The notes under the pieces are model-generated. The model saw only the letters and a list, made by a program, of their open reading frames with translations. It ran no database searches and was not told where the DNA came from. Source: Candidatus Buchananbacteria bacterium (lineage in GTDB: Bacteria > Patescibacteriota > Patescibacteriia > Buchananbacterales > UBA6539). From it: a DNA stretch of 64,000 nucleotides. A program made the position numbers and the translations under genes. Shown here piece by piece: positions 1 through 26,338 of this stretch; the first letter of the stretch is position 1, and each line of letters begins with the position of its first letter. Location: NCBI GenBank assembly GCA_041664165.1, contig JBAYLH010000006.1, positions 143-64,142 of the forward strand, given 5' to 3'.

Positions 1-12
1 GGCTGTTCGCCA

Positions 13-56
<44 letters not shown>

Positions 57-818
57 AGACTCGTGCTGTCTATAAATTCGGCTATATGCTGGAAAATCTG
101 GAAAGCCTCAAAGGAGTGAGGCTTGAGAATCTCACACTACTTAGCTATAATAATTATAGCTAAGTAAAAAAGTGTATGAGTGCAGACAATCAGCAGGAAA
201 GGCCAAATAATCTAAGTCCATGGTATATTACCGGTTTTACTGAAGGTGAAGGAACTTTTCACGTCGCAATTTACAAAGATTTAAAAATGAAATTTGGTTT
301 GAAATTCATTCCCGAGTTTCATATTAATCAAAGTTTTTTGCGGCAGGAAACCCTATTAGAGATCAAAAAGTATTTTGGTTGTGGCTATATAAAAAGTAAC
401 CACAGGCAAAATATTAGAGACGACACTTTGGTTTATGTTGTCAGAAATAGAATTGATCTTATTAGTAGGATAATTCCATTTTTTGAAAAGTATCCATTGC
501 TTTCAGACAAAAACAGTTCATTTGTTCTATTCAAACAAATAGTTAATCTGTTAAATAGTAAAGAACATTCGACCCTGGCCGGTAGTAAAAAGATACTTAA
601 TTTAGCCTATCAAATGAATCAGCAGGGTAAGTATCGAAAAATTGATCAAAAGTTATTGTTAGATTATTTGGAATCCTCAGAGACTATACGCCGAAATCCC
701 GCATAATCGGGATAAGATATAGTCCGAACTGCATGGCGACATGCAGATTCTGATAGAAATGTCAGAGCGCCACAGAGCATTAGAAGTTAAGGATGTGGTT
801 TTGCAAAGTAACAAATTG
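57..818 (+). mobile_element. Group I intron inserted in 23S rRNA at the I-CreI-type homing site (GAGACAGT|TCGG)
   Basis: The exon junction restores GACAGT+TCGGTC. The 5' exon ends in T and the intron ends in G at 818. It contains a LAGLIDADG ORF and a perfect hairpin at 141-164. Confidence 0.8.
176..706 (+). CDS. LAGLIDADG homing endonuclease (single-motif, I-CreI-like), intron-encoded
   Basis: N-terminal WYITGFTEGEGTF matches the LAGLIDADG motif. The protein is 176 aa and lies inside the rRNA intron. Confidence 0.85.
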   Translation: MSADNQQERPNNLSPWYITGFTEGEGTFHVAIYKDLKMKFGLKFIPEFHINQSFLRQETLLEIKKYFGCGYIKSNHRQNIRDDTLVYVVRNRIDLISRIIPFFEKYPLLSDKNSSFVLFKQIVNLLNSKEHSTLAGSKKILNLAYQMNQQGKYRKIDQKLLLDYLESSETIRRNPA

Positions 819-1186
819 TCGGTCTCCTATCCACTGTGGGCGTAGAAATTTGAGGGGGCCCATCTCTAGTACGAGAGGACCGAGATGGACGAATCTCTAG
901 TGTGCCAGCTGTCCTACCAGGGGCAGAGCTGGGTAGCTACATTCGGTTTGGATAAGCGCTGAAAGCATCTAAGTGCGAAGCCGTCCCCAAGATTAGATTT
1001 CGATATTAGGTTCCCGGAAGATTACCGGGTTGATAGGTGGCAGGTGTAAGAGCAGTAATGCTTTGAGCCGAGCCATACTAATTACCGATCTATTTAACCA
1101 CAAGAATTGGGATAAAGCGTAGAAACGCTACTTGCAATTATAATAAAAATTTTCAGAAGAAGCTTTGCCCAAAGTTTGGGCGAAGT

Positions 1187-1297
1187 GCTTCTGGTGGTTT
1201 TAGCGACAGGGAAACACCTGTTCCCATCCCGAACACAGAAGTTAAGCCTGCCAGCGCCGATGATACTCTTTCAAGGGGAAAGTAGGTCACTGCCAGT
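1187..1297 (+). rRNA. rrf: 5S rRNA
   Basis: CTTCTGGTGGTT...CCCATCCCGAACACAGAAGTTAAGC...GGGAAAGTAGGTCACTGCCAG are conserved 5S blocks. Confidence 0.9.
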
Positions 1298-1305
1298 TTA
1301 ACATT

Positions 1306-10791: not shown

Positions 10792-12045
10792 ATGAGGTTA
10801 ATCGCCGATTTGCACATCCATTCCAAGTATTCCCGGGCTTGCTCGAAGGATTTAGATTTGCCTCATATTAATCAATGGGCAAAAATTAAGGGGATTCAAA
10901 TTGTCGGGACTGGCGATTTTACTCATCCGGCCTGGCTAAAGCATCTTAAGGAAAACTTGGTTGAAAACCGACCTGGTTTTTTTAAATTTAAAGGCGATAC
11001 CGACTCCGTTTTATTCATGCTGACGACCGAGCTTAGCTGTATTTATTCTCAGGGTGATAAGTGTCGGCGGATTCATCTTTGTATTTTTGTTCCGGATTTT
11101 AAAACGATTGATAAAATTAATGAAGCCTTAACTAAGCGGGGAGTTAATTTAAAATCCGATGGCCGGCCGATTATGGGTCTTCACGCCGATGAATTGACCA
11201 AGATTATTTTAGACGCCAATCCTCAGTCATTAGTCATTCCGGCTCATGCCTGGACACCCTGGTTTTCGGTTTTTGGTTCTCATTCCGGCTTTGACACCTT
11301 GCAGGCTTGTTTCGGCGATCAAACTAAGTATATTTATTCAATTGAAACCGGTTTGTCATCTGACCCGCCGATGAACTGGCGAGTTTCGGCGTTGGATAAA
11401 ATTACTTTAATTTCCAATTCCGATGCTCATTCACCGGCGAATTTAGGCCGGGAAGCCAATGTTTTTGAAATCCCGGAAAATGAATTAAGCTATCAAGAAA
11501 TTTACCGCATCCTTAAAGAAAAAGACCAAAAACGATTTTTGTATACGATTGAATTTTTTCCCGAAGAAGGCAAATACCATTGGGATGGCCACCGCGATTG
11601 CCAAATCCAGTTTAAGCCCGGCCAAACTAAAAAAAATAAAGGCATTTGTCCGATTTGCAAAAAGCCGCTGACGATTGGCGTGGTTAATCGCGTCGAGCAG
11701 CTGGCCGACCGACCGGAAAATTTTAAACCTGACACGATCGGCTATAAAAGTTTAGTGCCGCTGCCGGAAATTATTGCCGATTTTTTGGGGCAGGGGAAAC
11801 TGACTAAAAAAGTTACGGCCATTTATCAGGATTTAATTGCCAAAGGGGGCAATGAATTTCGGATTTTACTTGATTTATCGATTCCGGAATTAGAAAAAAT
11901 TGCGCCGTTGGAAATTGCCTTAGGGATTAAAAATGTCCGGGAAGGCAAAATTGAAATTTCCGCCGGCTATGACGGAGTTTACGGCGTGGTAAAAGTTTTT
12001 AAAGGCGGAGAAATAAAAAAACTAGCCCAAAAAAGTTTATTTTAA
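10792..12045 (+). CDS. PHP-domain protein with C-terminal Cys-x2-Cys element (TIGR00375/EndoQ-like)
   Basis: N-terminal ADLHIHSKYSRA PHP metal-binding motif, HAWTPW, SDAHS, and ICPICKKPLT. Confidence 0.55.
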   Translation: MRLIADLHIHSKYSRACSKDLDLPHINQWAKIKGIQIVGTGDFTHPAWLKHLKENLVENRPGFFKFKGDTDSVLFMLTTELSCIYSQGDKCRRIHLCIFVPDFKTIDKINEALTKRGVNLKSDGRPIMGLHADELTKIILDANPQSLVIPAHAWTPWFSVFGSHSGFDTLQACFGDQTKYIYSIETGLSSDPPMNWRVSALDKITLISNSDAHSPANLGREANVFEIPENELSYQEIYRILKEKDQKRFLYTIEFFPEEGKYHWDGHRDCQIQFKPGQTKKNKGICPICKKPLTIGVVNRVEQLADRPENFKPDTIGYKSLVPLPEIIADFLGQGKLTKKVTAIYQDLIAKGGNEFRILLDLSIPELEKIAPLEIALGIKNVREGKIEISAGYDGVYGVVKVFKGGEIKKLAQKSLF

Positions 12046-12142
12046 TTTTGACGGTGTATATAGTGTAATCAAATTTTTCTACCATCGCCGAGCCAAACAA
12101 AAAATCCCGCAGTTATGCCGGATTTTTTGTTTGAAATCTATT

Positions 12143-12241
12143 TTAACGCCCGCGCTTTTTGGCCGCTTTTTTCTTGGCGACTTTGCGTTTTGGCGCTTTT
12201 TTGGCGACTTTTTTCTTGGCCGCTTTCTTTTTGGTTGCCAT
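12143..12241 (-). CDS. Small lysine/alanine-rich basic protein, 32 aa (MATKKKAAKKKVAKKAPKRKVAKKKAAKKRGR), absent from the ORF track
   Basis: SD aaaggaggtg lies 7 nt upstream of the ATG, with an extended -10 promoter upstream. Downstream there is only a weak, imperfect hairpin flanked by A and T runs. The ORF-track entry 12079..12306 is in a different frame of the same strand. Confidence 0.6.
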   Translation of the reverse strand: MATKKKAAKKKVAKKAPKRKVAKKKAAKKRGR

Positions 12242-12304
12242 GTTTGCTCACCTCCTTTCGTGAATTCGTTTGCAAAAATTTTTACTAAAAATATTGATAT
12301 TGTC

Positions 12305-12313
12305 ATTATAGCA
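12305..12313 (-). promoter_or_regulatory. Extended -10 promoter (TGcTATAAT) for the small basic-protein gene
   Basis: The reverse complement of 12305-12313 is tgcTATAAT, about 60 nt upstream of the SD. Confidence 0.5.
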
Positions 12314-12593
12314 CTTTTTTATTTTTTACACAATGATTTTTGGGGTAATTGTTGGTAACTCATTTAAAATTTTGAATATTTTGAATCTGATGCAGAAATT
12401 AAAACATAAAATAAAAAACAGCCCATCAGGTTGGGATGTTTTTTTGGTAGTAAATTTTATTTTAATCTCGCGCGGAGCCTTTTGGCGGTTTAGGAAGTTT
12501 AAAGATGAGTCTAAATATTTGAATTGGTTTTCGTATTGTCCCGAAAAATTGTGGTTCACCACGTTCGGGTTAGTTGGAACCAAGTTATTGACT

Positions 12594-13160
12594 TTACTCT
12601 AAAATTTCCAGAACCATATCACGCAACTTTTCAAACTTCACATAGCCAGCTTTTTTGTTAAAGTGTCCCGCATTCGGCACAAAGGAAAGCTCAACGCCGA
12701 GATTCTTTGCAAGCTCTTTGCCGTTTTCTAATCCAACATAGGGGTCATCATCAGACTGAAAAACTACAAAGTGTTTAGCTTTATTCTTAATTTTGTCCCA
12801 GTCAAAGGTAAAACCACTAAAACTGTTGTCTCGGTCATAGTTCGCGATAGGGCGAACTCCAACCGGAGTTCCTACGAAGAATGCAGCTTTAACTGGATGC
12901 GTTAATTTTTCCAATACACGCAAAGTGAAAATGCCACCCAAACTATGCCCGACTAAGAGAGTGTCTTCGTTGATATACTGCTCATAATTTTTAAGGACAT
13001 CAAACCACTCGGATATTTTTGCAGGAACTATGGGAGGCGAAGGAAACTGTGGGACAAATACTTTATGTCCTTTTTGTTCCAATTCCTGCTTCATCCAAGG
13101 AAACCAGTTTTCTTCTGGGTAGCCTTCTGTGCCGTGGAATATAAAAATGTTGTTTTTCAC
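12594..13160 (-). CDS. Alpha/beta hydrolase, RBBP9/YdeN-like serine hydrolase
   Basis: GHSLGG nucleophile elbow, about 190 aa, no signal peptide. Confidence 0.7.
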   Translation of the reverse strand: MKNNIFIFHGTEGYPEENWFPWMKQELEQKGHKVFVPQFPSPPIVPAKISEWFDVLKNYEQYINEDTLLVGHSLGGIFTLRVLEKLTHPVKAAFFVGTPVGVRPIANYDRDNSFSGFTFDWDKIKNKAKHFVVFQSDDDPYVGLENGKELAKNLGVELSFVPNAGHFNKKAGYVKFEKLRDMVLEILE

Positions 13161-26261: not shown

Positions 26262-26338
26262 GCCCATGTAGCTCAGTTGGTTAGAGCGCCACCCTTATAA
26301 GGTGGATGTCCCTGGTTCAAGTCCAGGCATGGGCACCA
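26262..26338 (+). tRNA. tRNA-Ile with genomically encoded anticodon UAU, CCA encoded
   Basis: GCCCATGTAGCTCAGTTGGTTAGAGCGCCACCCTTATAAGGTGGATGTCCCTGGTTCAAGTCCAGGCATGGGCACCA, anticodon loop CTTATAA. Confidence 0.8.

Follow-up and report, generated by a model that had tools for sequence, protein, structure and literature searches.

A small gene for a lysine- and alanine-rich polycation, very likely real, convergent with endonuclease Q in Patescibacteria

The stretch of DNA analysed here (the window) is 64,000 nucleotides (nt) of Candidatus Buchananbacteria contig JBAYLH010000006.1, and its minus strand carries an open reading frame (ORF) of 32 amino acids (aa), with its start ATG at 12241 and its stop codon TAA at 12145-12143. 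This ORF is present as an earlier note on the same DNA had claimed, and it encodes the lysine/alanine-rich peptide MATKKKAAKKKVAKKAPKRKVAKKKAAKKRGR. We consider it very likely to be a real gene; the note's proposal that a small basic protein gene had been missed here is strongly supported by synteny in 19 other genomes, by conserved promoter, Shine-Dalgarno (SD) and terminator sequences, and by codon signatures. The gene is probably monocistronic and highly expressed, and the best explanation of its product, to which we assign a probability of about 0.5, is an abundant nucleic-acid-binding polycation that most likely serves as a nucleoid counter-ion and compaction factor. The parts of the gene and its convergent neighbour, an endonuclease Q (EndoQ) homologue, are as follows:

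12143..12241, minus strand: coding sequence (CDS) of the 32-aa polycation MATKKKAAKKKVAKKAPKRKVAKKKAAKKRGR, from the ORF read in the window DNA, positional conservation and codon statistics
12248..12258, minus strand: SD sequence AAAGGAGGTGA, matching the canonical anti-SD complement over 11 nt; GGAGGTG and the ATG are 7 nt apart
12305..12313, minus strand: putative extended -10 sequence TGcTATAAT (TATAAT at 12310..12305), from window DNA and cross-locus comparison
12328..12333, minus strand: -35-like hexamer TTGTGT, 17 nt upstream of the -10 box, a layout common to 12 of 20 family loci
12093..12134, no strand assigned: putative bidirectional intrinsic terminator hairpin common to the small gene and the convergent EndoQ gene, from folding (A-run, stem, T-run)
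10792..12045, plus strand: EndoQ homologue, a PHP-type nuclease and the convergent neighbour (PDB 5zb8 and 7k30, E ~1e-54; Pfam MJ0043_C)

The small gene and its relatives beside EndoQ

Eighty genome loci were fetched through their EndoQ genes and scanned for small ORFs rich in Lys, Arg and Ala. Nineteen distinct loci (L004, L005, L006, L008, L015, L022, L029, L034, L037, L040, L042, L045, L049, L050, L057, L058, L066, L069 and L081) carry a 20-76 aa ORF with the N-terminus M-[A/P]-(x)-KKK and a C-terminal K/R run, and their EndoQ proteins are 51-73% identical to that of the window. The mini-ORF always lies on the strand opposite EndoQ, 51-256 nt beyond the EndoQ stop codon in these 19 loci; the corresponding gap in the window is 97 nt. 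The mini-ORF is conserved in position, an equivalent one being found at the same place in 19 other genomes. The window and these 19 EndoQ-linked genome loci are the "20 family loci" below, and the Patescibacteria EndoQ-linked mini-polycation family is defined in this analysis. It is defined by convergence with EndoQ at about 50-260 nt from the EndoQ 3' end; by a product that begins M-[A/P]-(x)-KKK and contains at least 40% K+R, besides only A, V, P and T, with no acidic residues and a C-terminal K/R run; and by a promoter of its own, a strong SD sequence 6-9 nt before the ATG and a terminator directly after the stop codon. The window gene has the linkage (97 nt) and the signals, and its peptide, MATKKK...KKRGR, has the composition.

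EndoQ is the only conserved neighbour in this clade, the gene upstream of the mini-ORF changing from locus to locus. The labels of the carrier genomes include Parcubacteria, Falkowbacteria and Magasanikbacteria. The mini-ORF is absent from the fetched loci labelled as lying outside the Candidate Phyla Radiation (CPR), namely Zixibacteria, Deltaproteobacteria, Nitrospirae, Planctomycetota and others, with the exception of five metagenome-assembled genomes (MAGs); these five carriers, labelled "bacterium" or "uncultured Gammaproteobacteria", are suspected to be mislabelled. Many CPR EndoQ loci have no mini-ORF, and with relaxed thresholds no further one of this kind was found elsewhere in the 658 kb of fetched loci. 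The persistent tail-to-tail arrangement with EndoQ around a shared bidirectional terminator is most likely explained by a compact pair of genes that is hard to separate, and does not prove that the two are functional partners.

The earlier note had placed the sequence aaaggaggtg 7 nt upstream of the ATG and tgcTATAAT about 60 nt upstream. Both were found: AAAGGAGGTG occupies 12258..12249, leaving 7 nt before the ATG, and the extended -10 sequence is at 12313..12305, with TATAAT beginning 69 nt before the ATG. Scored by the length of the anti-SD match, the 11-nt match of the small gene is the longest among 49 window genes surveyed (runner-up 7 nt, most 3-5 nt; longest-ORF starts were assumed for the other genes). 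Across the 20 family loci a GGAGG- or GGGGG-type SD sequence stands 6-9 nt before the ATG in 18 (hand count), typically as AAGGrGGTGAnnnAAC-ATG. The promoter layout TTGTnn-N17-TATAAT is found 55-130 nt upstream of the ATG in 12 of them, and TAYAAT occurs between -160 and -20 in 15, compared with 9.0 +/- 2.0 in shuffles.

All 20 loci have a stable hairpin directly 3' of the stop codon, most with an A-run before it and a T-run after it. The note had described that of the window as weak and imperfect, flanked by A and T runs; the runs are indeed there, but the hairpin is not weak, since 18 pairs, interrupted by one G/G mismatch, form within its 42 nt (12134..12093; -22.8 kcal/mol, z = -4.45, with 1 of 200 shuffles as stable). 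It sits 48 nt beyond the stop codon of the EndoQ gene and, because of the A-run before the stem and the T-run after it, reads as an intrinsic terminator on both strands. A consensus promoter/terminator scan missed both the promoter layout and this terminator, the latter because of the G/G mismatch; folding and cross-locus comparison recovered both.

MATKKKAAKKKVAKKAPKRKVAKKKAAKKRGR contains 15 Lys, 3 Arg and 8 Ala among its 32 residues, has a net charge of +18 and a calculated mass of 3.4 kDa (3431 Da) without its Met or 3562 Da with it, and includes no acidic residues and only 3% bulky hydrophobic ones (LIFWYM). Its charge density of 0.56 per residue is protamine-like, and its hydrophobic moment of 0.26 is near that of protamine, versus 0.5-0.9 for classical antimicrobial peptides. 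The composition over the 20 family genes is K 50%, A 22%, R 9.5%, V 5.5%, P 5% and T 3.6%, and members appear to vary in length by gain or loss of short K/A/V/P/T repeats. AlphaFold2 predicts one continuous helix over residues 2-30 (pLDDT 90), which would be compatible with the behaviour of H1 tails, disordered when free and helical on DNA. No second ORF like it is present across the 64-kb window.

The region of the small gene is of low complexity and all six of its frames are fairly open. The earlier note had remarked that the program-made ORF list reports only a longer ORF in another frame, which agrees with the list: in the two remaining same-strand frames it gives an ORF of 75 aa (12079..12306) and one of 45 aa. 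The 75-aa ORF was rejected as the gene because it starts within the -10 box and spans the SD sequence and the terminator, and because the two alternative same-strand frames contain stop codons in 9 and 14 of the 20 family genes. In these genes T at codon position 1 has a frequency of 0.01, Lys is encoded by AAA 226 times and by AAG 152 times, and all four Ala codons are used (GCT 63, GCA 50, GCC 32, GCG 17). Taken with the stops in the alternative frames, these codon statistics indicate that the amino-acid class is kept while the wobble bases drift, a pattern that would fit a translated frame.

Although half of the codons are Lys, the longest A-run in any of the 20 genes is no more than 8 nt. 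When AAA and AAG were shuffled among the Lys positions, 11.5 of 20 genes had an A-run of 9 or more, and none of 2000 shuffles was as low as the observed value; the same avoidance is seen in 65 non-redundant metagenome genes. Long poly(A) tracks are frameshift-prone homopolymers on which ribosomes slide, so their avoidance makes sense mainly for a frame that is being retained.

The exact sequence of MATKKKAAKKKVAKKAPKRKVAKKKAAKKRGR is recorded as a called gene on four metagenome contigs, and in the three examined (L001-L003) the ORF and 300 nt on either side are 100% identical in DNA to the window. Relatives beyond these identical contigs differ through repeat indels and are not alignable codon by codon. 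The gene has been missed because it is shorter than 40 aa, of low complexity and overlapped by other open frames, and because its computed tryptic fragments are only 1-3 residues each.

Similar mini-ORFs on metagenome contigs

A DNA pattern made from the SD sequence and start of the family, GGAGGTG-N5-10-ATGSCA-N0-3-AARAARAARG, was scanned over metagenome contigs and matched at least 120 stretches. Among the matches listed about 116 were translated, at least 78 of them giving short K/R-rich ORFs and at least 72 passing a stricter filter (13-89 aa, no acidic residues, less than 8% bulky hydrophobic residues or Cys). The mini-ORF contigs among the matches listed form a low-G+C group (0.29-0.53) and a high-G+C group (0.57-0.70); in contigs of 57-70% G+C, AAR-rich ORFs are not explicable by base composition.

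The neighbours of these mini-ORFs differ from group to group. An EndoQ-convergent context was found in at least 10 of the 72 among the matches listed by neighbour clustering, and in at least 12 by tblastn. At least five loci of a low-G+C clade (L105, L169, L178, L185 and L198) have the mini-ORF convergent with PrmC and RF1, and at least four (L132, L136, L146 and L158), also in a low-G+C clade, have it directly downstream of the seryl-tRNA synthetase (SerRS) gene. NadD is divergent and lysA downstream in at least eight loci among the matches listed, and on high-G+C contigs the mini-ORF is placed after an ECF sigma/anti-sigma pair. Because it recurs in several lineage-specific contexts, the architecture constitutes a recurrent class.

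Two of these groups have further features of their own. In the lysA clade (L157, with its mini-ORF at ~11665 on the minus strand, and L099, L115, L163, L165, L182 and L200) the 5' untranslated region is nearly invariant, AAAAGGATTTT...GCCAAAAGGAGGTGAyAnAATA-ATG, and a conserved structured 3' region of ~150 nt ends in the terminator ATGGAAGG...CCTTCCATTTTTT. Beyond this terminator lies a separate promoter-like element (TTGCAA...TATACT) and then lysA, and genes for NadD and HypA/B/E are upstream. Contigs of 64-70% G+C (L202, L199, L155, L137, L085, L098 and L168) carry mini-ORFs of 17-20 aa such as MPAKKKAAKKSAKKKKK, in the order endonuclease-III-like gene (divergent), ECF sigma, zf-HC2 anti-sigma (in L155), mini-ORF and small membrane protein. 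In related 15-aa mini-ORFs, MPAKKKAKKSSKKKH (L090, L104, L113 and L138), the CDS DNA is identical between contigs and the flanks have diverged.

Known systems and competing explanations

Searches with MATKKKAAKKKVAKKAPKRKVAKKKAAKKRGR of Pfam, NCBIfam and the PDB chain sequences gave nothing at E <= 10 other than a 6.8-bit match to the Lys-rich tail of valyl-tRNA synthetase (ValRS), which is meaningless. A phmmer search of 1.84 billion representatives gave no matches, a word-indexed protein search with the 42-aa relative from L006 returned 50 candidates of which none was significant, and exact-sequence cluster look-up found none of ten family peptides, that of the window included, in a collection of 15 billion proteins. 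In the literature searched, neither an account of mini-proteins of this kind in Patescibacteria nor a solved ribosome from these bacteria was found. The longer relatives give their best scores below the curated cut-offs, at 21.0 bits with HC2 (PF07382, cut-off 40), 19.6 bits with Hc2 (NF038052, cut-off 135) and 13.3 bits with the Burkholderia H1-like model (NF038053, cut-off 80), and they also have sub-threshold matches to the Lys-rich tails of ValRS, TopA and Rpf models.

The likeness to histone H1/Hc1-like tails that the earlier note had seen therefore stands for composition and falls for family membership. HC2 (PF07382/NF038052) and NF038053 were both rejected, the window peptide having no match at E <= 10 to the former and none to the latter and the relatives scoring below the cut-offs; chlamydial Hc1 was rejected in the absence of any Pfam match at E <= 10, and linker histone H1 on the same ground and because all 32 residues are tail-like, with no winged-helix GH1 domain and one helix predicted by AlphaFold2. 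The note's other suggestion, a bS22-type ribosomal protein, did not hold up: phmmer against all PDB chains gave no matches at E <= 10 for membership of bS22, bL37 or bTHX, no NCBIfam ribosomal family matched, and family length ranges over 20-76 aa through repeat number. The family is compositionally akin to bacterial H1-like proteins and stands outside every curated family.

Several known polycations resemble it. Chlamydial Hc2 (HctB) is likewise Lys/Ala-rich, of low complexity and built of repeats whose number sets its length, and it is the HC2 model that the longer family members match best, if below threshold. Hc2 condenses DNA, and its length varies with repeat number (PMC2848022); it differs in being 165-237 aa long against 20-76 aa, and the present host is not chlamydial and has no developmental-cycle context. 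Pseudomonas AlgP and PhaF and the Burkholderia H1-like proteins (NF038053) are also K/A/P repeat polycations that bind polyanions, as the family probably does; AlgP binds polyphosphate granules (PMC9239181) and the H1-like repeats of PhaF bind RNA (PMC12818456). These proteins, however, have 200-350 aa with extra domains or long KPAA arrays, whereas the family consists of free-standing mini-proteins. The tail of mycobacterial MDP1/HupB and the C-terminal domain of eukaryotic H1 share the K, A, P and T composition, and disordered tails of this type compact DNA through charge (PMC5974015, PMC10810275); they are joined to a folded domain (HU fold or winged helix), whereas the window peptide has nothing but the tail, with a higher charge density of 0.56 against ~0.4 per residue for MDP1/H1 tails. 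Protamines, which have a nucleic-acid counter-ion role, are like the window peptide in having ~30 residues, more than 55% of them basic, no fold of their own and a similar charge density; they are Arg-based and eukaryotic where the window peptide is Lys/Ala-based and bacterial, and homology is not implied. The ribosomal proteins bS22, bL37 and bTHX match the window peptide in size (24-33 aa) and net charge, but have fixed lengths and specific, non-repetitive sequences without sequence similarity to it, whereas the present family ranges over 20-76 aa. The small gene thus appears to be a new, tail-only variant of the bacterial H1-like/protamine-like polycation theme.

A nucleic-acid-binding polycation is rated the best explanation because known proteins of similar composition bind DNA, polyphosphate or RNA; we infer nucleic-acid binding and compaction by analogy with AlgP, Hc2, PhaF and MDP1. 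MATKKKAAKKKVAKKAPKRKVAKKKAAKKRGR would have no globular domain and would work through its charge density, binding polyanions, most likely chromosomal DNA, electrostatically. The DNA would be neutralised and condensed as it is by H1 C-terminal tails, protamines, Hc2 and the Lys-rich tail of MDP1/HupB, and the peptide would probably be disordered when free and helical when bound. Because family members differ in length through the number of their repeats, it is probably charge and length, and not a particular fold, that matter for function.

A number of points weigh against this explanation or the arguments leading to it. Composition-bias correction makes homology tools blind to this kind of sequence, so the "family" rests on synteny, architecture and composition, and the non-syntenic metagenome mini-ORFs may be of convergent origin rather than shared ancestry. 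Contigs L001-L003, being identical in DNA to the window, carry no evolutionary information. Throughout these genomes A/T runs of at least 9 nt are uncommon, with none in the window and 7 in 163 kb, so A-run avoidance may be a general homopolymer constraint rather than a sign of translation. The AlphaFold2 helix is a single-sequence prediction for an Ala/Lys peptide and weak as such, and the polyanion that is bound may be DNA, RNA, ribosomes or polyphosphate, between which the evidence does not distinguish.

One explanation that we regard as unlikely yet deserving of attention is that the product is a small basic protein associated with RNA or ribosomes, either a lineage-specific analogue of bS22, bL37 and bTHX or a PhaF-like RNA binder that replaces reduced rRNA or protein elements. 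Its size and charge are in the range of bS22; abundant translation components typically have, as this gene does, a very strong SD sequence and a promoter and terminator to themselves; some metagenome relatives adjoin translation genes (PrmC with RF1; SerRS); and PhaF shows that H1-like repeats can bind RNA (PMC12818456). No PDB chain matched at E <= 10, though ribosomes with small extra proteins have been deposited, and neither NCBIfam nor Pfam gave a ribosomal match. Variation over 20-76 aa through repeat number is unlike a protein fitted to one rRNA pocket, and the window gene lies outside any ribosomal operon.

The persistent pairing with EndoQ raises the thought that the peptide is a partner acting in trans, a detachable polycationic DNA-tethering tail that loads or stimulates this repair nuclease. 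EndoQ is the sole conserved neighbour in 19 genome loci and at least 10 metagenome loci while the other flank is reshuffled, and Lys-rich tails are fused to the nucleic-acid enzymes TopA and ValRS (weak matches). Convergent genes, however, cannot be co-transcribed, ascertainment is biased because the loci were fetched through EndoQ, and the mini-ORF is missing at many Patescibacteria EndoQ loci; among the matches listed only 10 of 72 metagenome mini-ORFs (12 by tblastn) accompany EndoQ, the rest being in at least four unrelated contexts. We judge such a partnership improbable.

About equally improbable, if slightly more so, is that the locus encodes no protein, the ORF arising incidentally from a purine-rich spacer or from a small non-coding RNA that lies between promoter and terminator. 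Low complexity, six fairly open frames and zero homology matches would suit such an origin. The ATG, however, stands 6-9 nt after a strong SD sequence in 18 of the 20 loci, stops are frequent in the other frames but never interrupt the K-frame, wobble bases vary while amino-acid class stays, AAR-rich ORFs persist at up to 70% G+C among the matches listed, and Rfam has no match in the region.

That an episymbiont exports the product, as a cationic antimicrobial or to act on its host, is very improbable. The peptide is short and cationic, Patescibacteria are host-attached, and machine-learning mining of small ORFs that included Patescibacteria (bioRxiv 10.1101/2025.11.13.688364) would probably flag it; however, with 3% bulky hydrophobics and a hydrophobic moment of 0.26 against 0.5-0.9 it lacks a substantial hydrophobic face, and there is no signal peptide or leader and no adjoining transporter, immunity or maturation gene in any context. 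A cationic amphipathic antimicrobial peptide was rejected on these grounds.

Least probable is a Lys-codon-rich leader peptide that senses lysyl-tRNA supply for transcription attenuation: about half the codons are Lys, a terminator follows directly and lysA is downstream in one metagenome clade, but that clade has a terminator and the separate promoter-like TTGCAA...TATACT before lysA, and in the window and all EndoQ-linked loci the next gene is convergent, so that there is nothing to attenuate; the orientation of EndoQ (10792..12045, plus strand) contradicts such a leader at the window locus.

Neighbouring features, host and significance

The EndoQ homologue is full-length and its best structural matches are PfuEndoQ of P. 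furiosus (5zb8 and 7k30). Its closest relatives are in metagenome-assembled Patescibacteria (CPR) genomes, and the host is a Patescibacterium. A genome scan confirmed 564 EndoQ relatives, many in Patescibacteria and others in various anaerobic phyla, and EndoQ therefore looks widespread in bacteria of this kind. On the other side of the small gene lie two further features:

12419..12433, no strand assigned: terminator-like hairpin flanked by an A-run and a T-run, placed between hydrolase gene and small-gene promoter (consensus scan, listed for the plus strand; a minus-strand T-run is seen)
12594..13160, minus strand: upstream hydrolase gene (ORF list)

The hairpin would insulate the small gene from the upstream hydrolase gene and, together with the gene's own promoter and terminator, would make it a separate transcription unit. 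No record was found for the hydrolase protein under its longest-ORF start. In the 350-nt spacer that separates these two genes (12326..12602), mechanical ORFs of 85 aa and 89 aa lie on opposite strands; they look spurious because they are AT-rich and overlap the 12419..12433 hairpin.

Elsewhere in the window, positions 1..1298 hold an interrupted 23S rRNA 3' region, with parts resembling large-subunit rRNA at 1..345 and 844..1088, a group-I-intron-like element between them at 514..746 (RF00028, 36.6 bits, under the gathering score of 50), and a 5S rRNA after the interrupted 23S at 1190..1298; rRNA genes with introns are typical of CPR bacteria. At 26262..26338, adjoining tRNA-Val(GAC), is a tRNA-Ile whose anticodon is TAT (UAU). 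Such a tRNA-Ile is uncommon, since in most bacteria AUA is read by a CAU tRNA modified with lysidine.

The failure to find any of ten family peptides among 15 billion proteins, and the absence of a significant match in profile and pairwise searches, point to a systematic blind spot, to which it may be added that a protein whose tryptic peptides have at most three residues cannot be detected by standard proteomics. Since the signature of SD sequence, M-A/P-KKK start and terminator was found in dozens of mini-genes on unrelated contigs, the class may be widespread. We tentatively raise a broader possibility, which we hold to be rather less than probable: that ultra-small Patescibacteria, and separately several other phyla with high-G+C soil bacteria among them, possess genes for free-standing "mini-protamines", 13-90 residues long, which would rank with their most strongly expressed genes and serve as major nucleic-acid counter-ions and compaction factors, a class invisible to gene callers, databases, homology searches and trypsin-based detection. 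Patescibacteria have a roughly megabase genome in some of the smallest known cells and a reduced protein set. If the explanation preferred here is true, a conserved polycation of 20-76 residues, to all appearance very highly expressed, would offer a simple candidate for the factor that neutralises and compacts their DNA or RNA, and the bacterial histone-H1-like proteins would gain a "tail-only" form.

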